Source of the DNA: Nostoc punctiforme PCC 73102
GTDB taxonomy: Bacteria; Cyanobacteriota; Cyanobacteriia; Cyanobacteriales; Nostocaceae
Length of the DNA stretch: 32,000 nt
Direction: 5' to 3'
Assembly: GCF_000020025.1 (NCBI RefSeq)
Contig: NC_010628.1
Location: forward strand, 7,890,001-7,922,000
The notes under the pieces were generated by a model. That model was given only the letters and a program-made list of their open reading frames with translations. It made no database searches and was not told the origin of the DNA. Of the stretch, positions 17,827-31,041 are shown piece by piece. Made by a program: the position numbers and the translations under genes. The number at the start of each line of letters is the position of its first letter. Within the stretch, counting starts at the first letter, position 1.

Positions 17827-19818
17827 TTAAACTAGAGCGTACACTTTCGCTTCCCAGGGGAAGATGCCTTCTCTGCCTACCCATTCTGATGGAACTATCC
17901 GTTCTTGAGTAATTTCCTTCCACTGCTTGCCAACTGGGGTTGCAGGCCAATTTGGGACTCTGTACTCAGAAGCAGGAGGAGTGCCGTAGTCAGAGAAATT
18001 CGCCACTACAACTACTAATTGATCGGCTTTATTACCACGTTGCCAGACTAGAACTCGCTTACCCTCATTAAAGTCAACATGAATAAATTTAGTATCATTC
18101 ACAGCTAAAGCATGAGAAGTTTTACGCAAGCGAACCAACCTCGCAACATATTGGAAAATTCGTTGCCGCCAATCATCTTTCACACGGCTGTAGTTAACTG
18201 GGTCAATTTGCTTATGATCGTCTGTTGTAGCTAAATCTTGTTGATCGGCAAATTCATCTCCGGCCAGGATCATGGGAATCCCTACAGAGGTAAGCAGGGA
18301 AACAAATGCTAACTTAATACGCGGTTCAGTATCAGCAATTCCATTACTAACCAAATAGCTAAAGAAACGCTCGTTACCATAACCACCAACATCATGGGAA
18401 GTTATATAGTTTACCGCCTGAGAGCCATCTGTAAAGCCTAAGTTTCGGCAATCAATTAGTTTGCGAATACTCCACTCAAAGCTGGGTTCATCCCAGGCAT
18501 TCTTACCTAAAATTACTTGTCGGATGATTTGCTTAAACTTTTCATTCCAAAGTCCATCCAGACGATTTTGTTGGATGAGAGATAGGGGTACACTCAACTC
18601 TTCGCCAACTACGAGGAAGCGATCGCCACTTCCGCCTCTTTTGTCCCAAAGGGTGCGGGCAAAATCCTTAAATTCCTGCAAAAAGTCATAGTTGGCAATA
18701 TTGTTCACGCTATCCAACCGCAGACCATCAACCCGATAGTATTCCAACCAGTGGGCAATATGGGCTTTTAAGTATTCACGGGCTGGCACAAGCCATGACT
18801 TTTGCCCAGTAATGGGATTATAACCCTCTACCCAATAGTTGTACTTAAATAAGTCCCCACCAAAGCCATCTCTTGATCCTTGTTCTGGATCGCCACTGGC
18901 CCATTTGATGTAAAATTCCAAAAAATTAACGTTATGTTAAGGATTATTCCGCGAAAATGCCATTACCACATCCACAAAAAAGCGCAACCCTTGCTGATGG
19001 CAGGCTTTAATCAGGTTAGCTAAATCAGTTGAAGCAGTAGGTGCTGACTGGCTATCTGGACGGCCTAAGTCAAAATCTGCTGCAAAATAATTTGCTGTAC
19101 CATAGCCCCAATTGAGATTATCATCGCTGTCTTCTGGTGGCAGAAGTTCTAAGGCGTTGATTCCCAGTTCCACAAGATGAGCGCGGTTATTCAAGGCGGT
19201 GAGCATAGGAAAAGTAGGAGCGATCGCTTCTGGTATCAAGAGTGCCAGTACGTCACGAAATGTCCCGACTCCTTCTTCAATCAATCCATTTGAGTTAATC
19301 TTTGTCCATCGGGTTGGTAATTCGTAAATCACCAGTTGATTATTGGTGGGTAGCGTCTCTAAAGGAGCATCACCTTCCCAATTTACAGTTTGCCCCTGTG
19401 GATCGCAGGGAATCAACGTCCCATTCTGATAAAGCACGACGCTTGCCGGATCGAAGCTATTAACGCCTCCCGATTCTGACGGCGTTGGTGCAGGAAAGCG
19501 CCGATCTACAGTCGTCGCTGTTGGATCTGTACAGTAGAGAATTTGGTTAGCATTGGCAGCTGCGTAGGGGTCTGAGTTGCGGACTTTAAACCAGTAAAAA
19601 TAGACCTGTCCTTCAGTCAGGCCAGATTCTTTAGCCGAAACTTCCCACAATTCTGGAAATTCTGCTGATTGACGAAGCGGAATTTCTCTCAATTTAGCTA
19701 ATCTGTCTGGGCTTTCAGGACTAGTGTTGCCAATGTAGAGAGTGGGAGCTAGTTCTGAAGCACCGACACGCCACAAGACAAAATGAGTTTTTTTACGGCT
19801 TAATAGATCGATAGGCAT
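17827..19818 (-). pseudogene. GH13 (alpha-amylase family) glycoside hydrolase split by a single in-frame TAA (complement of 18937-18939)
   Basis: ORFs 18937-19818 and 17827-18921 are in the same frame. Read-through gives ...FFVDVVMAFSRNNP*HNVNFLEFYIKWASGD... GH13 regions II-IV lie in the downstream part (VDGLRLDSVNNI, LVVGEELS, NYITSHD). The track start of the second ORF is a TTG. Confidence 0.8.
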
Positions 19819-21974: not shown

Positions 21975-22139
21975 TTACGAAAAACTGGGGATTTCAGAGT
22001 TAGAATCTTTTGATGTTGCAGTAGAGCGCGATGGTGAAGTGTTTTGGATTTTTTCAGACAGAATTACTAGCAATTTAGGCAGCGCAAGGCAAGCAACAGT
22101 ATTTAGCAGCGTTAGTAATATACCATCGATTAAACTCAT
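21975..22139 (-). CDS. Small membrane-anchored protein (54 aa), not in the ORF track; paralog of ORF 30796-31041
   Basis: My translation reads MSLIDGILLTLLNTVACLALPKLLVILSEKIQNTSPSRSTATSKDSNSEIPSFS*. AAGGA lies 9 nt upstream of the ATG. It shares 17 of the first 26 residues with the 81-aa ORF (MNLIDTILLTLLNITICVAFPKLVAI...). Confidence 0.5.
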   Translation of the reverse strand: MSLIDGILLTLLNTVACLALPKLLVILSEKIQNTSPSRSTATSKDSNSEIPSFS

Positions 22140-22353
22140 GTGCGATCGTCCTTATTTCAAAATTGGTGTTTACTATATTTTTAGTTTGAAGCAAAATTAG
22201 TACAATTGCTTCAAAGCAGCATTTTAATTTCTTTTATCGGTTATAAGCTAACTAAATATATTCTTATAATTTAAATTTGACTCGTAAAATCTCTTTTTTC
22301 TCTCAGCGTCGCGCCAGTTGCTACAAGTCGGGGAACCCGCCCAACGCACTGGC

Positions 22354-22409
22354 TTCTCTGTGCCTCTGTGGTTAAAAAGTAGTTAATTTAACCACAGAGG
22401 CGCAGAGAA
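22354..22409. repeat. Long hairpin repeat (22-bp stem, 12-nt loop) 30 nt downstream of the operon's last gene
   Basis: TTCTCTGTGCCTCTGTGGTTAA (22354-22375) pairs with TTAACCACAGAGGCGCAGAGAA (22388-22409) with one mismatch. No U tract follows on the minus strand, so it is a structured repeat and a possible but non-canonical terminator. Confidence 0.8.
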
Positions 22410-22438
22410 CACAGAGGTAAGAAGTGAAATTAGCTAAC

Positions 22439-23929
22439 TTAACTATATTTGAGAAGGCGTAAGCCCTCTAAGCGGAGAGCTTCAGGATATAGAGCTTTAT
22501 AAATATTGCAATTTGGAGATTGAATATCATAACGGCCTGTAGCCTTAAACGTAGCCAGAGAGCAACCACCCGTACACCAGTATTTCCATTCACATGTACG
22601 ACAGCCTTCTTTTTCCTCAACAGATAAATTCTGAATACCTGTTTTATCTTGTCGCACAACAGTTAAAGGATCTTGAGCATCAACAGAGGATATAGTTTTA
22701 TGTAGCTGCATCTGACATTTGGCAATTTGTCCTTGGTAATCAAATACAAGATAGCTTTGCCCAACTCCACAAGTTCGTTTATGAGGAGATGCTAAATTAG
22801 CACGATCAACTAATGAACCTAATAAGCTACGATTAGGTAATTTCAATTCAATAACTTTGAATGCTGCTAACATTCCCTGAATCATTCTATATTCTTCTAG
22901 TTGCAAATCTTCGTAAGAAGCTGACAATTCATTTTCACGATAAAAGTTTAAACTAAAGGGCAGATTATGCTCCAATATCCATTCAATCAGATCGGGTAAT
23001 CCTTCTGCATTGCGCCCGCTAATGGTAATGGAAATATCGGGTACTAGCCCATTTGCTAAAGCAATCTTAATACCCCTTTCCACATCTTGAAATGAACCCT
23101 TTCCACCTGCATAAGTTCGTTGGATATTGTGGAAATCTGATAATCCATCTAGTGAAATCATGAGACGCAGATTCAATATTTTAAGCATCTCGATAATCTC
23201 AGGCGTAATCAATATTCCATTAGTGAGAACAACTCCATCTAATATAATGCCTCTTTCCTTGCTAAGTGATTGAGCATATAAATGCAGTTCTTTAATTAAA
23301 GCAGAGCATAATAATGCTTCTCCTCCCGCATACTTTAGTTTGACGCGGCGGTAATTATTTAAGCTAGCAGAGCGAAATATAGATTCAATAGCTGCTCTGC
23401 CTATATCTATTGACATATCCCTGGCTAAATGAGGAAGATAGCAGTAGTCACATCTTAAGTTACAGCGATCGGTGATATGTAACCATGCAGATAAAGTTTC
23501 TGGTATTTCATTTAGGTTAAATGGGCTATTGTTTTTAGGAATAATTAAACGGGCTTGATATAGTTCCTGAATAGCTGTCTGTAAGTCGGTTTGGTTAATG
23601 TGATAATTCTCTTTTGTGATCTCATCTAATTTATGAGAATTTGTAAATGTATTTCGTAAATATAATGCGGATTCATTTAGAACTGCTACTTTATGATTAC
23701 CATAACAGATAGAGTAAGTATCATCTAGATTCATTATTTGCGAATTGGGAGATATGACAAACTCTGTCTCAAATATCCCCAGAGATAATGATGTATCTGA
23801 GCCTAATTCTGCTAAAGGGGATAAGTCACAGGCACAATCCCCTCCATCACAATCGCATTGTCCAGTTAGTACGCAGGTAGAATTGAGAGAAACTAAAATT
23901 CTGGGTCGATCAATTTTTTTACTAAGCAT
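22439..23929 (-). CDS. Radical SAM/SPASM-domain enzyme with an N-terminal Cys/Asp-rich segment and an RRE (PqqD-like) region
   Basis: The rSAM cluster motif is HITDRCNLRCDYCY and the SAM-binding motif is KYAGGEALL. The SPASM motif is CRTCEWKYWCTGGC (Cx2Cx5Cx3C), with upstream CGVGQSYLVFDYQGQIAKC and downstream SPNCNIY. The first ATG (23929) overlaps the upstream stop as ATGCTTAG. The track start at 23953 is a GTG. Confidence 0.85.
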   Translation of the reverse strand: MLSKKIDRPRILVSLNSTCVLTGQCDCDGGDCACDLSPLAELGSDTSLSLGIFETEFVISPNSQIMNLDDTYSICYGNHKVAVLNESALYLRNTFTNSHKLDEITKENYHINQTDLQTAIQELYQARLIIPKNNSPFNLNEIPETLSAWLHITDRCNLRCDYCYLPHLARDMSIDIGRAAIESIFRSASLNNYRRVKLKYAGGEALLCSALIKELHLYAQSLSKERGIILDGVVLTNGILITPEIIEMLKILNLRLMISLDGLSDFHNIQRTYAGGKGSFQDVERGIKIALANGLVPDISITISGRNAEGLPDLIEWILEHNLPFSLNFYRENELSASYEDLQLEEYRMIQGMLAAFKVIELKLPNRSLLGSLVDRANLASPHKRTCGVGQSYLVFDYQGQIAKCQMQLHKTISSVDAQDPLTVVRQDKTGIQNLSVEEKEGCRTCEWKYWCTGGCSLATFKATGRYDIQSPNCNIYKALYPEALRLEGLRLLKYS

Positions 23930-26714
23930 GAGAAGATGGCTGTTTTGTTGCACGGATTCTAGTCAAAAACATTTGTTGATCGCACCATTCTTTGAGAGCT
24001 TTATTGTCTTGCCAATGATGTTTGAGTTGCTGGATTAGGGTTTTAGAAAGTTCTATAGGCAACCGTTCGATTTTCTTTTGGAGCAGATTTAACTCATGTT
24101 GGATCGAATAGGGCCCAAAACCTCCATCCTGGAAGATTTGGGGTATGCCTTGAGCATATTTTGCAAAGGCAAGATCGTAGTTCGCCTGTTGAAATGCAAC
24201 ATCACCTTCTATCCGTAACATCCGACCAAAGTACAGTTGATAGGTATTTTGATATGACTGGAAGCGATCGCTAAGTTCTCGTGCATAATCTGAAATATGC
24301 TGGTATGCTTTTGCATAATAATCAAACTCTGCTTTCCCTACCAGGCTATCGATGGCATACCGCCTGTCATTGTACTCTAGACTAGTGTGGTAAGAGCGAT
24401 CGTTGAGTTTGAGAGCTTGTTCTTGCAAAGAGCGATCGCACTTTTGAAACCCAAGATGCCAGTAAACACTGGCCGTTTGATGCCAAATTCCAGGCAATTC
24501 CTCTTCCAGTCCATATTTTTCTGCCAGTTTCAGGCTTTTTTCTAAAGCATCTTGAGCCTGACTTAGCACATCTAGATCCCACTTTACCTGTGTTACATCC
24601 CAAACGGCTTCATTTAGTACCTCGGCACTAAACCACTGATTTAAGCCTAAATGAAAGTATGCCCTACACAATATTCGATTATCATCTTCCTCATTATTGC
24701 AACGACTTAATGCTCGTTCAAGTAGCTGTTTAGCTTTAACATAGTTCCCCTCATTTACCGAAATAGTCGCAGAGGCAATTTCAGCGTTGGCAATTTCGCG
24801 TTCAGTCTCTACACTCGCCCACATATCAATAGCAGCCTTAAAACACTGTTCAGACTTAATATAATTTTTTTGTAGACCGTATAAATATCCCAAGTTATTC
24901 TGAATACTAGCCATAACTTGAGTTAAGCCTTTGTTAGGAGTGTCAACTTCCATAGCAGCATCCCAACCTAGTTTGTAATATTTTTCAGCTTCGTTAAAAT
25001 TGTTCAGTTGTCGATACAGATAACCAACTTGGTTCGCTACACCTGGAATAGCAGATGCTAGCTTTTTCTCTTGAACCAGAGATAAACACTTTTGCTGATA
25101 TTTCAAAGCTTCCTCATAAAGATGTAACTTAGCATTCAGCATTCCCAAGACATTGCAAAGGTCTGGTTGATGAGAAGAATTAGAAGATTTATCAGCTAAC
25201 ATAGCTTCTAATTTTTTCACTTCATTTTCTGTTGTACCCTTGTCTTTAAGGGCGTGGACAAGCTTTGCTTCAAAAATAATCAATTTAAATCTTTGGTCGA
25301 AATTTAGTTGTTTTTCAAACTGTTTTACAACCGCCAATAATTGATTAACAAAGCTGAATTTCTTTGATTGACTGCGTATCGTATTAGTAACTTCATGCCA
25401 AGTTTCAAAGCCGATAGTTGGGTCAGCCTCTAAAGCATTCCATAGCCATCGTCTTGTATTGAATTCTCGCTGCTGTTTTAGTTCTTCAATTAGAAACTCA
25501 ATATTAGCGGCTTTATTATAATTATCAGAATAAAGTTGAACCTCCAATATCCTTTTCTGCGGCCCTAGCTGATAATCTTTTTTCTCAAAATATTTGGATG
25601 CAATCCGACTATCTCGTTTTCTCCATTCAAAATCTGGGTCAATATCTGCCCATACATATTTATTAACCAAGTCTCGCACAATATCATGCAATGCTATTTG
25701 AGAACCACTGATTACTGGTTTGATAAAAAAGTAGCTCTGAGCATCAATAAATAATTTTTGAGCATCTTCTATCGATAGTTCTAATAGATTAGCAATATCA
25801 GAACTATCTAATGGATAAATACGTGAAAGTAACAAGGTTAGCCTATCCATTGATGTCCGAAGCTGCGTAATATGTCGAACCATCTCAGCTTCAAATCCAC
25901 CCGTTTTTTCTAACCTGGCTGGAATAGTTTCTATATCTTCACTCTCTAACCAATCTGGAATAACTTCTCGATAAGCATATTCTACTCCAAATTCAATCAT
26001 AATGGGGCTACCACCAGAAAGAACTATGATCTTTTGAACTAAGTCTTTCCCAAGAGTAAAATGAAGTTGCTCCTCTTTGGAAAGAATGTATGTCTGTACA
26101 TCTTCATGAGTAAATTCATTTAACTCCAAATAAGTTAATTCTGCTTCTGTAAACGATTTTTCCAAAATTTGGCGAGCAATACTAGGGCGGCCTGCTAAAA
26201 TCAATACGGCATTATCTAGTTGCTGGCATAGATTACCAATATATTCCCAAACTTCCGCTCTTCCCTCTGCTTGTCCTAACTTCTCAACTGTATCAATTAA
26301 AAATACTAATCTCTTTTGTTTAGATTTTCGATTAATTTCATCGACTAAAAACTTTTCAAGTTGTCTGCGTTCTTCTTGGTATGCAGTTTGACTGAGGTGG
26401 TTTTCATCTTCTCGTAGTTGTCGTAATCGGAGCAGCCATTCTTGATATGTATTCTCATACAATTGCTTAGCGATTTGAGTGCATAAATCTTCTGCATCGT
26501 TAAAAACAGGAGTATCGCAATCAATAATTTCACTTGTTCCAATGTTTACTTGATTGAGGCGGTTTTGTAATTCATTAAGCAACCAAGTTTTGCCAATTCC
26601 GCCTCTACCCTCCACCAAAACAACATGAAGCTTATTAGCTTTTTGAACAAGGGTAATAATTCGATTTAGATGTTCTTCACGACCAACAAACTCTAATTTA
26701 TCTATTTCAGACAT
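23922..26714 (-). CDS. STAND-class P-loop NTPase (AAA_16/NB-ARC-like) with a C-terminal TPR repeat array
   Basis: 930 aa. FVGREEHLNRI precedes the Walker A GRGGIGKTWLL. Walker B is RLVFLIDTVE and the GxP-like motif is LSGGSPIM. From about residue 520 there are TPR-like units (NVLGMLNAKLHLYEEALKYQQKCL, NQVGYLYRQLNNFNEAEKYYK, NNLGYLYGLQKNYIKSEQCFKAAI and others). AGGAG sits upstream of the ATG. Confidence 0.8.
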   Translation of the reverse strand: MSEIDKLEFVGREEHLNRIITLVQKANKLHVVLVEGRGGIGKTWLLNELQNRLNQVNIGTSEIIDCDTPVFNDAEDLCTQIAKQLYENTYQEWLLRLRQLREDENHLSQTAYQEERRQLEKFLVDEINRKSKQKRLVFLIDTVEKLGQAEGRAEVWEYIGNLCQQLDNAVLILAGRPSIARQILEKSFTEAELTYLELNEFTHEDVQTYILSKEEQLHFTLGKDLVQKIIVLSGGSPIMIEFGVEYAYREVIPDWLESEDIETIPARLEKTGGFEAEMVRHITQLRTSMDRLTLLLSRIYPLDSSDIANLLELSIEDAQKLFIDAQSYFFIKPVISGSQIALHDIVRDLVNKYVWADIDPDFEWRKRDSRIASKYFEKKDYQLGPQKRILEVQLYSDNYNKAANIEFLIEELKQQREFNTRRWLWNALEADPTIGFETWHEVTNTIRSQSKKFSFVNQLLAVVKQFEKQLNFDQRFKLIIFEAKLVHALKDKGTTENEVKKLEAMLADKSSNSSHQPDLCNVLGMLNAKLHLYEEALKYQQKCLSLVQEKKLASAIPGVANQVGYLYRQLNNFNEAEKYYKLGWDAAMEVDTPNKGLTQVMASIQNNLGYLYGLQKNYIKSEQCFKAAIDMWASVETEREIANAEIASATISVNEGNYVKAKQLLERALSRCNNEEDDNRILCRAYFHLGLNQWFSAEVLNEAVWDVTQVKWDLDVLSQAQDALEKSLKLAEKYGLEEELPGIWHQTASVYWHLGFQKCDRSLQEQALKLNDRSYHTSLEYNDRRYAIDSLVGKAEFDYYAKAYQHISDYARELSDRFQSYQNTYQLYFGRMLRIEGDVAFQQANYDLAFAKYAQGIPQIFQDGGFGPYSIQHELNLLQKKIERLPIELSKTLIQQLKHHWQDNKALKEWCDQQMFLTRIRATKQPSSHA

Positions 26715-26728
26715 AATAGGCTCCTGAG

Positions 26729-28387
26729 TTAATTATTTTGAATAGCTTCATCAAGCTTATGAATTAAATAGTTATAGGGTGTGTCATTATATTCCTCATT
26801 GTGAAGATAGTAATTTACAAGAAACTGAAATTCCCAGTCATGCTCTACTTCAGATTTAAGCGTAGACAGAAATTCATGGGTTTGCTCTCGGTCTGTATTG
26901 CGGAATATTCCAATAGTTTCTTCAACAGTTTCGTCAAAGAAAGTTTTACGAAGTTCTTTTCGATAAGTCAAACTATCAGTACCAGAATTGATAAATCCAG
27001 CATGTTGCTGAAGACTTTGAAAAAAATACTGCATTGACCAAGTTCCCGCCACCGCAGAATCATTCTTGGATTTAAGCTCGTGAACATATTCCCAGCAAAT
27101 TTGAGCTGCTTCGCTACAAAGCTTTTGAAAGCTATCAGGTGAGCTTTCTCGGAGAAGGCCAATAACTAGCAGCCGACGGGTCATTCCATCTTTGATAATT
27201 GTTTTATCACGAGTAAAAATTGATGTCTTTGTCAGTTCGGCGTTTAATTTAAAGCTATCATCACTAAAAGGTAACTGAAATCTTCTAACGGCTTCCTTTA
27301 ATATCCAATTTCCATTTAGTATAGGAAATATACTAAGTTTTTCAATAGATTCGTATAGATTATTGTTTTCTTTTGTCAAGCTTTCTTTAATCTGATCTCT
27401 ACAATGTTTGAGGGTTTTTTCCCATAATTTGCTACCATAAGTTTTTAAAAACAAATTAACTGTGTAACCACCACTTCGATAAACTTTTAGGGCTTCAGCA
27501 ATCCCCCCTGGATGTCCGCCAGTTAGATAAAGTAAGTGTCCTGCTAGTAGTGCAAGACTTTCAGAGGTCATCTCAATCGGCTTGAGATATTTGGTCGCTG
27601 TATCTTGAATAACTTCCCAGTTAAAAGGTGAGAGAATTAGTTTAGGAAGAATCCGATCTGGAGGAAGATCGGTAAGACAGCGAGCTGCAATTACAACTCG
27701 AAGACTCTTGGAATTATCTTTAAAGAATTGTAATTCTTTCAAACAATTTTCAATTCTCCATCCTAATTCTTTAAGCTGAACAAAAATTTCACTTAAACGT
27801 TGTTTTTGTGGGGCATTTCCATCCAGATCGATTAGCAATACAATACCTTTTTGCCCCTGCGATTGCCACCTAGCCCAATTTCTATGTAATAATAAACCTA
27901 AGCGTTCTCCCCAAGGCAACTCATTCCCTTCTTCAATCTTTAGACTGAGAGAATTAGCTAATTCTTTTTCTAAGTCTTCAATATTTTGATCGCCGGACAT
28001 GGAAGCATAAGCGCAACACCATTGTAATTCTTGAAAGCGCTTCTGGATCTGTTTGAGAAATTCGGTTTTTCCGTAACCTTTAGGAGCCGTTATCAAACGA
28101 TAAGTAGGAGAATTATTTGCTGTAATATCACTAATTGCAGCATCCCGATTAGTAAATGGTATTTTATCAGGATCAACTTGCTCTAGAGTTTCTTGATTTA
28201 GCTGGCTTAACTCTGATTCAGCTTTTTCTATTTCCTTAAATTTATTCTCAAGTTGCCTTTCTAATTGATCTTTCTGTACATTATTTAGCGTCCACCCTAT
28301 TTGGTTGCTGAGACTTTCAATGTCAGTGGTTAAACGGGCTATTAACTGCTCAAGAGACTTCTTTCGTAAATCTAAGGAATTTTTCAT
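26729..28387 (-). CDS. STAND-like P-loop NTPase with an N-terminal coiled-coil adaptor head and no recognisable repeat sensor
   Basis: 552 aa. Residues 7-63 are heptad-like helix. FTNRDAAISDI precedes the Walker A APKGYGKTEF. Walker B is GIVLLIDLDG and the GxP-like motif is YLTGGHPGGIAEAL. The C-terminal ~200 aa are helical with no family I recognise. Confidence 0.7.
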   Translation of the reverse strand: MKNSLDLRKKSLEQLIARLTTDIESLSNQIGWTLNNVQKDQLERQLENKFKEIEKAESELSQLNQETLEQVDPDKIPFTNRDAAISDITANNSPTYRLITAPKGYGKTEFLKQIQKRFQELQWCCAYASMSGDQNIEDLEKELANSLSLKIEEGNELPWGERLGLLLHRNWARWQSQGQKGIVLLIDLDGNAPQKQRLSEIFVQLKELGWRIENCLKELQFFKDNSKSLRVVIAARCLTDLPPDRILPKLILSPFNWEVIQDTATKYLKPIEMTSESLALLAGHLLYLTGGHPGGIAEALKVYRSGGYTVNLFLKTYGSKLWEKTLKHCRDQIKESLTKENNNLYESIEKLSIFPILNGNWILKEAVRRFQLPFSDDSFKLNAELTKTSIFTRDKTIIKDGMTRRLLVIGLLRESSPDSFQKLCSEAAQICWEYVHELKSKNDSAVAGTWSMQYFFQSLQQHAGFINSGTDSLTYRKELRKTFFDETVEETIGIFRNTDREQTHEFLSTLKSEVEHDWEFQFLVNYYLHNEEYNDTPYNYLIHKLDEAIQNN

Positions 28388-28392
28388 TGCAT

Positions 28393-29280
28393 TTAAATGG
28401 CATTAAGTTCGCTTTCTACTCGACCGAGTTCTTGGAGTATGGTGTTGATTTGGCGCTGAATGATATTGCGATCGCTCGCAGCGAGTGTATAGTTAAGCTG
28501 GTTGTATGCTGCTTCGTAGTCACTGCTTAGAACCTCAAAGCGTTGTTGCAAAGTCTTAATTTTGAGTTGTTGTACCCGGCTGGGGCTATTCTGAGTATGT
28601 GCATTTGATGAAATCGGCAAGGTTATTTCATCCCATGCTTTGCTCAATACGTCCACCGGAATCATGAAAGCAGTCTTGATATCTTCTCGCTGTTTCTCCG
28701 CCGCTACAGCCATACCAACCACTCCTGCAAGGGTTTCATCCCATATAGGCGCACCACTAAAGCCCGGTTCTATCCTGTAGCCAGTTACCTTACTATCTTC
28801 CAATTGCACCCATCCCTTTCCTTGCCCATCTCGCAACACCCCTGTAGACCAAACGCCATCATTGTGCCCGTGAGGAAAACCAAATATGCGGAAAGGATGT
28901 CCCCAAACGTTATTAGCCCAGATGAGCTTAATAGGTTGCGCTTCATGAGGTAATTGTCCTTCTATTTGCAACCCGGCAATATCTTCAGGTTCGGAGGTTG
29001 ATACATTGTTGACAACAGGTTGCCAAAAAACAACTTTAGCTTTTAGTTTTTGCCCTGGTGCAATTAGGGGGAAATCTAAGCAAATATCATGACTAGGAGC
29101 TTCAACTATATCTTCTGGTAAAGATAGAGCCGAAGTAACAACGTGAGCGCATGTCAGGATATAATTTTGACTTCGCCCTGACACTAAAAAACCTACACCA
29201 ACTACCGCACCATTCGGATGAAAAATCCGAGCGATCGCTGATCTAAAAGCTGGAATATAATTATCTGCAATCGATGCCAT
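28393..29280 (-). CDS. Trypsin-like (S1/Trypsin_2) serine protease with a C-terminal ~57-aa helical tail
   Basis: 295 aa. The catalytic triad candidates are His46 (LTCAHVV), Asp100 (PEDIAGLQI) and Ser175 (EPGFSGAPIW). The tail, residues 239-295, reads LKIKTLQQRFEVLSSDYEAAYNQLNYTLAASDRNIIQRQINTILQELGRVESELNAI. Confidence 0.8.
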   Translation of the reverse strand: MASIADNYIPAFRSAIARIFHPNGAVVGVGFLVSGRSQNYILTCAHVVTSALSLPEDIVEAPSHDICLDFPLIAPGQKLKAKVVFWQPVVNNVSTSEPEDIAGLQIEGQLPHEAQPIKLIWANNVWGHPFRIFGFPHGHNDGVWSTGVLRDGQGKGWVQLEDSKVTGYRIEPGFSGAPIWDETLAGVVGMAVAAEKQREDIKTAFMIPVDVLSKAWDEITLPISSNAHTQNSPSRVQQLKIKTLQQRFEVLSSDYEAAYNQLNYTLAASDRNIIQRQINTILQELGRVESELNAI

Positions 29281-29286
29281 ACGTTA

Positions 29287-29628
29287 CTATGCCTTGTCTT
29301 GCTTCCATTTCAAGGTAATTTCGTAGTTAGCTTCACCACCTACAGAAGTGAAAATTGCACCTGCAACAGCATTTAATTTAATACCAAATTTCACCTCTAC
29401 CTCATCGGCAGGTGTATTAAGCTGACTCAGTTTGATGATAATTGCTGAAGCTACAGGTTGTATTTGATCCAATACTTCATCAAATTTCTTTTTAGCTTCA
29501 ACTACTATTTGCCCAGCATCTGGTCTAGCAACACGTACAAGAGAATTGCTATTTTCTGGCTCATCAACTTCAGCTAAAAACTTTGTGCCATCTTCTAGAG
29601 AAAACTCTGTTATCTGTTTCCGAATCAT
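29287..29628 (-). CDS. Trypco2-like (trypsin-co-occurring domain / CU044_2847-like) small protein
   Basis: 113 aa from the ATG at 29628; the track start at 29649 is a TTG. The pattern FSLEDGTKFLAEVDEPE...VEAKKKFDEVLDQIQPVA...PADEVEVKFGIKLNAVAGAIF...EANYEITLKW matches my recollection of this family, which sits beside trypsin-like peptidases. The stop lies 6 nt before the protease ATG. Confidence 0.6.
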   Translation of the reverse strand: MIRKQITEFSLEDGTKFLAEVDEPENSNSLVRVARPDAGQIVVEAKKKFDEVLDQIQPVASAIIIKLSQLNTPADEVEVKFGIKLNAVAGAIFTSVGGEANYEITLKWKQDKA

Positions 29629-29764
29629 AGTAAGACCTGTTATTTTCAATTAATAGTTGAATGTGTAAATAATCAAGATATCTTGTCGAAGTTTTTTGGA
29701 GATAATCTTATTTTCATCTAAGAGGTTGTTTTCAAAGTGTTTGGCTGTGCTTTTAAGTACTTCT

Positions 29765-30040
29765 AGATTCCCCCTAACCCCCCTTTTTAAGAGCTACCGT
29801 GTATACACAAGTCGTATTACCCCCCTTAATCCCCCCGATATATTGGGGGGAAATAATATTTCCGGTTCCCTCACCTTTATAAGGGGAGGGTTAGGGTGGG
29901 GTAAAACCTGTGTTCTTCAGCTATTTTCAGACTTGTGTATACACCGTAGCTTTTTAAGAGGGGGGAACCGGAATTAAAGTCCCCTTTTAAAGGGGATTTG
30001 GGGGTATTTAGAACTTTTAATACCGACAAGGGGACTTTTA
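29765..30040. repeat. Composite MITE-like block of nested G-run/C-run hairpins
   Basis: AGCTACCGTGTATACACAAGTC (29792-29813) pairs with GACTTGTGTATACACCGTAGCT (29930-29951) with one mismatch. Internal palindromes include CCCCCCGATATATTGGGGGG (29831-29850), ATTTCCGGTTC/GAACCGGAAT and AGTCCCCTT/AAGGGGACT. The track ORF 29696-29977 merely reads through this block. Confidence 0.75.
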
Positions 30041-30137: not shown

Positions 30138-30499
30138 AATGCTTGCTGCAAACTTTTCTTGGTCAATTCTAGAAGTTTGTGAAGTTTCTTAATAAACTGA
30201 CCAACTTTCGGCTGTTTGGGCGTTAAAGCTGTTTGACTCTCATGTAATAGATTTAACAATTAATATATTAATGGTTATATTAGTTATATATGGACTCTAA
30301 CTTCAATTAGTAATTATACTGAGTTAAACTCTGGCAAGGAAACTAAGGTATAGTGCAAGCCTAGGAGTTTCAAGTAGTTTTTAGCCTTGCATTTCGAGTC
30401 TTAGCGGGTTTAGTAATACTCTTTAATTAAGGCAAAAGATGCGATTTATCGGGTTTTTGTGATGTTTATAGCAATCCTGAATCATTGCTGATAAACACA

Positions 30500-30530
30500 G
30501 ATCCCCGACTTCTTAAAGAAGTCGGGGATC
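30500..30530. repeat. Perfect 31-nt palindrome
   Basis: GATCCCCGACTTCTTAAAGAAGTCGGGGATC has 15-nt arms. It resembles dispersed Nostoc-type hairpin repeats. Confidence 0.85.
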
Positions 30531-30795
30531 TGGGGGTTGCAATTCTTACAAATCAAATAGGATCGCTACTGAACGGCGCGATCGCACTGTGAAATTATGT
30601 ACGTACTGTTCAATATGCTTGTGTGGAAATGATAAATACTTACAGCATAAGAGTTTCAGCAATGATAGTCGAATGAGCGTTAGCGTAGCTCATCGTAGAC
30701 ATCGCTTGAATAAGTAGACGCATAAACTATCATTTGGAATGCAAAAATATAGGTGTTGGAAAAAAATAAATTTTTCCAATTTGGCAAACAATCCA

Positions 30796-31041
30796 TCAAT
30801 TTGGAGAACACTTAGAACAAAAATCAGGACTGAATTTGCAGTATTGACTACCTGTTAATGAGTACGCTGTACAATAAGGAAAACTCGTGAGTCCAATTTT
30901 GGCTGTTTGCAATTTTGAACCGTTCCGCGACACTCCATTCGGTTTGGTTTTATCAGCCAGAAAGATTGCTACAAGCTTAGGAAACGCTACGCAAATAGTA
31001 ATATTGAGCAGCGTCAATAGTATAGTGTCTATCAAATTCAT
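30796..31041 (-). CDS. Small membrane-anchored protein (81 aa) with a Cys- and aromatic-rich C-terminal tail
   Basis: AGGAGA lies 9 nt upstream of the ATG. The N-terminus MNLIDTILLTLLNITICVAFPKLVAIFL is hydrophobic. The tail FPYCTAYSLTGSQYCKFSPDFCSKCSPN has 4 Cys and 6 Phe/Tyr in 28 residues. The N-terminus is paralogous to the 54-aa ORF at 21975-22139. Confidence 0.55.
   Translation of the reverse strand: MNLIDTILLTLLNITICVAFPKLVAIFLADKTKPNGVSRNGSKLQTAKIGLTSFPYCTAYSLTGSQYCKFSPDFCSKCSPN

Follow-up and report, generated by a model that had tools for sequence, protein, structure and literature searches.

Radical S-adenosylmethionine (SAM) enzymes that combine a SPASM domain with a recognition element (RRE) for peptides that are made on ribosomes and modified post-translationally (RiPPs) are usually taken as markers of RiPP clusters with a separate precursor. 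CteB (5wgg) and TigE (8vpo), in which an RRE, a radical SAM core and a SPASM domain follow one another, act on separately encoded leader-core peptides, and PapB and QhpD are radical SAM/SPASM enzymes that join a cysteine sulfur to the side-chain carbons of Asp or Glu. Radical SAM proteins are also found beside STAND nucleoside triphosphatases (NTPases), in the FxsB/FxSxx-COOH systems of multicellular bacteria (PMC7159879) and in the operon of the anti-phage protein KpAvs2 (PMC11564622). The window considered here, a stretch of 32,000 nucleotides from Nostoc punctiforme PCC 73102 (contig NC_010628.1, positions 7,890,001 to 7,922,000), holds a radical SAM/SPASM gene, the last of a five-gene minus-strand operon, whose family departs from the rule. 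In our reading, to which we give a probability of roughly one half, this enzyme has no separate precursor; its own acidic CxC motif serves as substrate of the active site, or at least as ligand of the open iron of auxiliary cluster I (Aux I), and the enzyme is the RRE-bearing third subunit of an NTPase system.

The enzyme and its N-terminal motif

The gene, its product and its immediate downstream border comprise the following features, with coordinates of the window.

22439..23929, minus strand: radical SAM/SPASM gene; probable coding sequence of 496 residues from the ATG of M9 (Pfam Radical_SAM, E 9e-17)
23888..23905, minus strand: conserved N-terminal strand, residues 17-22 (PRILVS), with P17 near-invariant and hydrophobic residues after it
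23825..23857, minus strand: Cys/Asp motif, residues 33-43 (CDCDGGDCACD), two copies of (D/Q)-C-(D/A)-C
23537..23764, minus strand: predicted RRE-like winged-helix domain, residues 64-139 (AlphaFold2 predicted local distance difference test score, pLDDT, 81-94; Foldseek)
22934..23485, minus strand: radical SAM core, residues 157-340 (Pfam PF04055 over residues 160-326), including the GGE motif
23441-23464, minus strand: CxxxCxxC (C164, C168, C171), within the core
22508..22771, minus strand: SPASM domain, residues 395-482, with seven Cys for two auxiliary clusters and the eighth Cys ligand absent
22349..22414: inverted repeat of 28 nt, 89% complementary with a 10-nt loop, ~25 nt past the stop codon; a probable mark of the operon's end

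The preliminary description of this locus had drawn attention to a cluster of five Cys and four Asp in the 17 residues 27-43 (CVLTGQCDCDGGDCACD), and the cluster is real: a 17-residue window with at least five Cys and at least four Asp arose in 1 of 20,000 shuffles of the protein. Relatives of the enzyme, which share 52-95% identity over ~480-520 residues and come from Nostocales, Chloroflexota and Acidobacteriota, keep the N-terminal extension, and both the cluster and the segment at residues 80-138 are conserved down to ~52% overall identity, so that the conservation in homologs on which the earlier proposal of a peptide substrate had been staked is indeed found. P17, C33, D39, C40, C42, N93 and F103 are near-invariant.

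Across the family the cluster proves to be a short linear motif of the form (D/Q)-C-(D/A)-C, with D, A or S as the next residue. This was defined on 185 unique N-termini, drawn from 120 database proteins and from a set of 88 loci on which the motif and small open reading frame (ORF) analyses rest; the set comprises eight loci with called genes and 80 species genomes, the best 80 of the 258 that carry the family among 185,579 searched. CxC occurs 389 times in these N-termini against 27.7±5.6 times in shuffles, with D or Q ahead of its first Cys in 95% of cases and D or A between its cysteines in 97%; CxC accounts for 74% of all N-terminal Cys. The copies number from one to four and the Cys from two to more than eight, and an extra copy (for example ...QPADQDCACASEEDCGCACAAGEEDC...) stands in the linker between RRE and core in 10 of 179 members. 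N-termini that lack CxC are truncated gene calls, or variants such as CDAC and CDFDCD. A regular-expression scan of the six-frame ORFs of the 88 loci and the window found the motif confined to the N-terminus of the radical SAM enzyme, save for three hits in small ORFs elsewhere that look like chance matches.

Confidence over the motif is low in both structure predictions made with AlphaFold2, falling below pLDDT 50 in the full-length model (overall 75.5) and to ~52-55 in a separate model of residues 9-152, and the segment is therefore probably disordered. Kept across phyla in fast-diverging, disordered sequence, in variable copy and at variable position, the motif behaves as a tethered ligand or substrate would and not as a fixed metal site. 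This bears directly on a second explanation, in which the CxC pairs coordinate an additional Fe-S cluster, or else Zn or Cu, and so form a sensor of redox state, oxygen or metal, or an electron relay. The two pairs of the Nostoc protein would supply four thiolates, and many proteins bind metals through acidic loops rich in Cys. SkfB, too, has a further cluster domain at its N-terminus (PMC6231123). We nevertheless regard a metal site as unlikely, given the variation in the number of cysteines and in the number and position of the copies, a predicted disorder that leaves no folded knuckle, and a limit to Asp or Ala between the cysteines that metal binding does not require. A profile built from 30 N-termini likewise found nothing significant among PDB sequences, its ferredoxin match reaching an E of only 0.48.

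The boundaries of the gene matter to this argument. The ORF spans 22439-23953 on the minus strand, and the GTG at 23953, which had been taken as the start, would add eight codons before M9. The ATG at 23929 is the more probable start, because the alignment of all relatives begins at M9 and because this ATG (23929-23927) and the stop codon of the preceding gene, which encodes the STAND protein called B below, overlap by 8 nt, an arrangement that appears typical of translational coupling. The ~150 residues said to precede CxxxCxxC are borne out at ~160. By contrast with the alignment, a 100% identical database protein of 431 residues (P0010, a RefSeq-type call) is annotated from M74 and therefore lacks the first strands of the RRE and, ahead of them, the conserved strand and the Cys/Asp motif (window 23734-23953, minus strand). 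The reference annotation in this way hides the motif, and no Pfam, NCBIfam or PADLOC model spans the family or its system.

Fold, family and predicted chemistry

In the full-length model, residues 64-139 form four strands followed by three helices, at the confidence given above. Foldseek comparison of the model of residues 9-152 with the PDB returned almost exclusively known RREs, the best being TigE (E 3e-4, rmsd, the root-mean-square deviation, 1.3 A over 78 columns), followed by MccB, ThcOx, TbiB1 bound to its leader, LynD/TruD, McbB, TglI, PqqD and MadB. The full-length model is likewise closest to TigE and CteB (Foldseek E 1e-17, 465-471 columns), whereas it aligns with the RRE-less anSME over 376 columns only. 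Sequence methods are silent: Pfam searched with residues 1-157 at E <= 10 gave no PqqD match and a single, spurious match to Tsg_N, and phmmer of the N-terminus against 1.8 billion cluster representatives gave four matches, all same-family members or fragments, because the N-terminus diverges too fast for a single-sequence search. The PqqD-like RRE proposed earlier consequently stands as a fold and not as a sequence domain; sequence profiles find no PqqD domain, and the RRE fold of residues 64-139 is established at the level of prediction.

The strand at residues 17-22 is predicted in both models (pLDDT ~60-72), follows the pattern P-x-I-L-V/L and lies ~12 residues upstream of the motif. In the N-terminal model it must pair with the RRE module, because all other strands of that model belong to the module, and it is possible that it represents a leader-like strand packing there.

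The catalytic part of the protein is unambiguous. C164, C168, C171 and the GGE motif are invariant in the family, which with a PF04055 E of 9e-17 makes the protein a radical SAM enzyme, and the full C-terminal SPASM motif noted earlier is present at residues 395-482 as C395-x12-G-x4-C413 ... C451-x2-C454-x5-C460-x3-C464 ... C482. A regular expression for this seven-Cys motif matched all 205 full-length relatives scanned, in every one of which the first pair is C-x17-C and exactly seven SPASM cysteines are present, the extra ligand of anSME being lacking. Although the SPASM region aligns to both CteB and anSME, its first hairpin aligns to CteB without gaps, whereas anSME has an extra Cys-bearing insertion there. 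The shared Cys spacing and the absent eighth ligand are a likeness to CteB that makes the sequence consistent with an Aux I that has an open coordination site. Overall identity to CteB and TigE is only 16-20%.

The best NCBIfam matches of the enzyme are all peptide maturases, most of them for Cys-rich substrates, and all lie below their cut-offs.

PapB (NF047865): 141.4 bits, cut-off 340; Cys-Asp thioether; best NCBIfam match, aligned over residues 157-474
DynA: 104 bits, cut-off 450; dynobactin maturation
nif11 maturase: 101 bits, cut-off 518.7; nif11-like peptides
QhpD (TIGR03906): 98.6 bits, cut-off 453; Cys-Asp/Glu thioether
CcpM: 88 bits, cut-off 500; Cys-rich peptides
SCIFF maturase (TIGR03974): 86 bits, cut-off 425; thioether crosslink
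CefB: 82.5 bits, cut-off 600; Cys-every-fifth peptides

No curated NCBIfam family is reached at its cut-off, PapB, QhpD, SCIFF, FxsB, viperin and anSME included. The anSME model (TIGR03942) gives 74.5 bits against 349, and the enzyme is without the Cys-bearing anSME insertion; FxsB (TIGR04269) gives 54 against 370. The genetic surroundings agree, there being no SCIFF gene, which together with 86 bits against 425 places the enzyme outside the SCIFF/CteB type, and no quinohemoprotein amine dehydrogenase gene in any locus, which does the same for QhpD. What is supported is an RRE-bearing radical SAM/SPASM enzyme of the peptide-maturase type that lies outside every curated family tested, and the class of peptide- or protein-modifying enzymes to which it had first been assigned is favoured both by the nearness of the predicted model to TigE and CteB and by these matches.

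Radical chemistry on a small molecule, as in viperin, with an antiviral nucleotide analogue as effector, would dispense with a peptide altogether. The PADLOC pVip model matches weakly (59 bits, core only) and Foldseek lists viperins at E ~1e-7, but these matches are restricted to the common radical SAM core (residues 158-316). The NCBIfam viperin model NF038283 gives 53 bits against a cut-off of 180 and covers core residues 158-279 alone in a protein that also has an RRE and a SPASM domain. Further, the enzyme has no effector-type adaptor, and it is the effectors that vary around it. Viperin-like chemistry, already doubted in the preliminary description, is in our estimation exceedingly improbable.

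For the preferred reading, in which the enzyme's own motif enters the active site, PapB and its relatives provide the pertinent chemistry. The motif contains a C-x3-D unit (C35-D39) and adjacent C-D pairs, all within the range n = 0-6 over which PapB tolerates Cys-Xn-Asp (PMC9413430); Cys/Asp motifs are present, but in the radical SAM enzyme itself, and the loci contain no PapA or QhpC gene and no qhp operon, the setting being a STAND NTPase operon where a RiPP or cofactor cluster might have been expected. The Cys or Sec that becomes crosslinked by PapB and Tte1186 is directly bound to an auxiliary cluster (PMC10177961). The seven SPASM cysteines, the CteB spacing, this ligation and the PapB range together suggest that a motif Cys could ligate Aux I and be crosslinked to an Asp or Ala carbon, and hydrogen-atom abstraction at a specific site accounts better than metal binding for a middle position limited to Asp or Ala. 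The strand at residues 17-22 would pack on the enzyme's own RRE module, and the active site would then receive the tethered (D/Q)-C-(D/A)-C motif. There a motif Cys thiolate would ligate Aux I, as the substrate Cys does in CteB, PapB and Tte1186, the 5'-deoxyadenosyl radical would abstract a hydrogen atom from a neighbouring Asp or Ala carbon, and one or more intramolecular thioether crosslinks would form with the loss of 2 Da each. The domain architecture, the conserved motif with its changing copy number and position, the lack of a precursor gene and the conserved gene trio are observed; action of the enzyme on its own motif, and a thioether as the product, are what we infer. By analogy, chemistry such as that of PapB, QhpD or CteB would be the likeliest. 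If self-modification is true, a leader and a core have been fused to their maturase by nature, possibly with a new Cys-Asp/Ala crosslink as the product.

Several considerations weigh against this reading. Some members have only two or three Cys or carry the CDAC and CDFDCD variants, and the PapB match is far under its cut-off (141 against 340 bits). AlphaFold2 leaves the motif unplaced and no model puts it in the active site; nor do the models show which edge of the RRE the 17-22 strand pairs with, so that the groove could still be free for a substrate in trans. Seven-Cys SPASM domains can finish their ligation via a non-Cys residue, as with Asp in PqqE. Single-turnover self-modification is, to our knowledge, unusual for enzymes, and a literature search found no natural radical SAM enzyme with a substrate or precursor fused to it.

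The search for a separate substrate

That the operon encodes no precursor had been noted from the outset, and none is conserved among the 88 related loci either, where the genes downstream of the radical SAM gene vary from locus to locus. Clustering of 1054 small ORFs around the 39 non-Nostoc loci produced no recurrent family; none occurs in more than five of the 39, and those that recur in up to five are alternative-frame shadows of neighbouring genes. A profile of the N-terminal module searched against 5.8 billion proteins found no stand-alone peptide or RRE, only truncated or frameshifted fragments of the same fused protein. Of the candidate substrates named earlier, the enzyme's own Cys-rich N-terminus is thereby the one that the data favour, its motif being conserved and exclusive to the radical SAM protein. 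The small protein at the head of the Nostoc operon fares less well: thought at first to be Trypco2-like, it is Trypco1 (PF19493, E 6e-26), and since it is found in Nostoc only it cannot be the family-wide substrate and is ruled out in that role. Lack of conservation led us to reject the C-terminal tail of B, and proteins A and B and the effectors were rejected as motif carriers because the motif is absent from all of them.

Paralogous small ORFs flank the operon in the window, one of 81 residues at 30796-31041 (minus strand) and one of 54 residues at 21975-22139 (minus strand). The 81-residue ORF, ~1 kb upstream of Trypco1 and conserved in ~35 Nostoc loci, encodes a hydrophobic helix at its N-terminus, and its invariant C-terminus, LTSFPYCTAYxLTGSQYCKFSPDFCxKCSPN, contains four Cys. 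Neither Pfam nor NCBIfam gives a match to it, and it is absent from five Nostocales loci that have the operon. Between it and the operon, at window 29778-29965 and 30498-30532, lie an inverted repeat of 36 nt, whose arms are 89% complementary and 116 nt apart, and a GC-rich hairpin of 16 bp, which may be repeat elements or terminators that separate transcription units.

These small, Cys-rich, membrane-type ORFs could in Nostoc be a conventional precursor encoded elsewhere than in the operon, and the conservation of the upstream one, with its invariant four-Cys C-terminus, speaks for that possibility. As substrates the pair had been proposed before; they were rejected as precursors, being Nostoc-specific and not obligatory. 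The upstream ORF is missing from five Nostocales loci with the whole operon and from all Chloroflexota and Acidobacteriota loci, an inverted repeat separates the radical SAM gene from the downstream one, and outside Nostoc the small-ORF clustering offers nothing beyond the frame shadows already described. A conventional precursor is, in sum, very unlikely.

The operon and STAND conflict systems

Upstream of the radical SAM gene the operon contains four genes.

29287..29649, minus strand: Trypco1 protein, usual partner of a trypsin-like peptidase (PF19493, E 6e-26; NCBIfam CU044_2847 family)
28393..29280, minus strand: trypsin-like peptidase with a C-terminal EAD9, variable effector/signalling module (Trypsin_2, E 7e-13; EAD9, E 3e-23)
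26729..28387, minus strand: protein A, an N-terminal EAD9 adaptor with a P-loop ATPase (EAD9, E 7e-17; sub-threshold AAA_22, E 3e-4, and ATPase_2)
23922..26714, minus strand: protein B, a STAND (NACHT/NB-ARC-like) NTPase with an array of tetratricopeptide repeats, TPRs (NACHT, NB-ARC, nSTAND1, TPR_12)

Across the 88 loci the radical SAM gene is always the last of a trio A-B-radical SAM. A large B homologue of 900-1300 residues directly precedes it, often overlapping it, in essentially all loci with upstream sequence, and upstream of B stands an ATPase gene of 480-620 residues, protein A. What lies further upstream is exchangeable, as a comparison of the Nostoc operon with other loci of the set (labelled L001 and so on) indicates.

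Nostoc: Trypco1 and trypsin-EAD9
L001: two TIR proteins
L008: a TIR domain fused to A
L003: an FGE-sulfatase-domain protein
L004, L006 and L007: small proteins, some with weak membrane-protein-like matches

In the last three loci, all from Chloroflexota, a domain of ~55-75 residues without a Pfam match recurs in the small protein and at the N-terminus of A (blastp E 1e-4, 2e-14 and 3e-26; L004:5062-7175, L006:4968-7240, L007:4837-6948), and these domains appear to be undescribed effector-associated adaptor pairs of families other than EAD9. As a separate observation, two of the three small proteins look membrane-anchored. Given that the EAD9-EAD9 pairing of Nostoc is repeated by other adaptor pairs in Chloroflexota, protein A may be seen as an effector-recruiting NTPase that draws in variable effectors via paired adaptor domains. 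Protein B is, from its domain content, the putative TPR-bearing STAND switch of the trio, and the radical SAM enzyme, which has no adaptor and is not exchanged, is a core subunit and not an effector.

A further explanation supposes a substrate supplied in trans. The RRE would capture a strand either from a partner, be it A, B or an effector, or from an invading protein, and the enzyme would crosslink it; the enzyme's own CxC motif would then be an autoinhibitory pseudosubstrate, or a plug of Aux I, until activation displaces it. A separate peptide is what RREs normally bind, and the predicted RRE fold is present here; QhpD, moreover, modifies a partner subunit and not a free peptide. Translational coupling of the radical SAM gene to the TPR-STAND gene suggests a complex. 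Likewise, Avs2 protects against some phages only if the accessory radical SAM protein Avap1 is present (PMC11564622). On the other hand, A, B and the effectors have no conserved Cys/acidic motif or conserved tail, the effectors differ among loci, and beyond the enzyme fold the N-terminal motif of the enzyme itself is the sole element conserved across phyla. A substrate in trans therefore seems to us improbable.

With regard to conflict systems defined by effector-associated domains (EADs) and Trypco, the operon has the expected parts, namely EAD9 on the peptidase and on A, Trypco1, and NACHT/NB-ARC/nSTAND1 on B; the definitions of Trypco1 and EAD9, and of the logic of the adaptors, come from Kaur et al. 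2020 (PMC7159879). The cores described there are MoxR-vWA with VMAP, iSTAND, FtsH or a beta-propeller, or else GAP1/DO-GTPase, whereas no MoxR, vWA, VMAP or GTPase gene is present at the trio loci and the core consists of ATPase A, STAND-TPR protein B and the radical SAM enzyme. In the main text of that study, radical SAM/SPASM proteins appear in two settings only, VMAP systems with FxSxx peptides and FtsH systems, and the trio does not figure there. The FxSxx-COOH systems are alike in that an NTP-dependent conflict system of multicellular bacteria couples a radical SAM/SPASM enzyme to a STAND/AP-ATPase with TPRs, and in that both use Trypco, trypsin and EAD-type adaptors. They differ in that the trio loci have no FxSxx peptide, metallopeptidase, MoxR, vWA or VMAP gene, and in that there are two P-loop NTPases here and the peptide is fused to the enzyme. 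Protein B does not match the FxsT models.

The KpAvs2-Avap1 pair, by its description, is similar in that a STAND anti-phage NTPase has a non-viperin-like radical SAM accessory, and it shows that radical SAM partners of STAND proteins exist (PMC11564622). Avs2, in contrast, has its own nuclease effector and a partner Avap2 (DUF6375), and no TPR protein or second ATPase is reported for it. The PADLOC Avs models match neither A nor B, no model in PADLOC or NCBIfam covers A, B or the radical SAM family, and a literature search for a trio of this kind found nothing. The two-NTPase, immune-like trio would accordingly represent an undescribed conflict system, and two things would set its enzyme apart from other RRE-bearing radical SAM/SPASM maturases, the candidate substrate fused to it and its place as a core subunit of a STAND system.

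How the enzyme might serve such a system can be sketched. The state of the tethered peptide would probably feed into the TPR-STAND switch; that B reads a modified tail is speculative, and is proposed because B and the radical SAM protein are tightly coupled and because TPR-AP-ATPases with radical-SAM-modified peptides provide a precedent (PMC7159879). In its fullest form, which we consider possible but doubtful, the proposal is of a self-contained RiPP-like machine with a leader-like strand, core motif, RRE and maturase in one polypeptide, whose crosslinks would be read by the TPR-STAND NTPase, as would a failure to form them when an invader disturbs SAM, reducing power or Fe-S clusters; the NTPase in turn would release variable effectors via the adaptor ATPase. 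Were this true, the radical SAM enzyme would not be biosynthetic but would sense or license, as a subunit of an immune-like system of multicellular bacteria. More broadly, the trio has the swappable-effector logic of STAND immune systems and would offer a role for radical SAM accessory proteins such as Avap1.

The hosts, among the best 80 of the 258 species genomes, are mostly Nostoc and filamentous Chloroflexota, and toxin-antitoxin, integrase or other STAND genes are often neighbours of the operon; the radical SAM family is absent from the viral and plasmid collections searched. A natural deletion of the Nostoc operon (L022:8129-11530) has lost A and ~80% of B and has kept Trypco1, trypsin-EAD9 and an intact radical SAM gene. 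A complete Nostoc-type operon, with 87-92% protein identity, is found in a metagenome-assembled genome labelled uncultured Acetobacteraceae (L016, CAZZZY010000038.1), which is probably a binning contaminant. Elsewhere in the window, two adjacent ORFs on the minus strand (17827-19818; 293 and 364 residues) look like halves of one glycoside-hydrolase-type gene and may be a frameshift or split gene.

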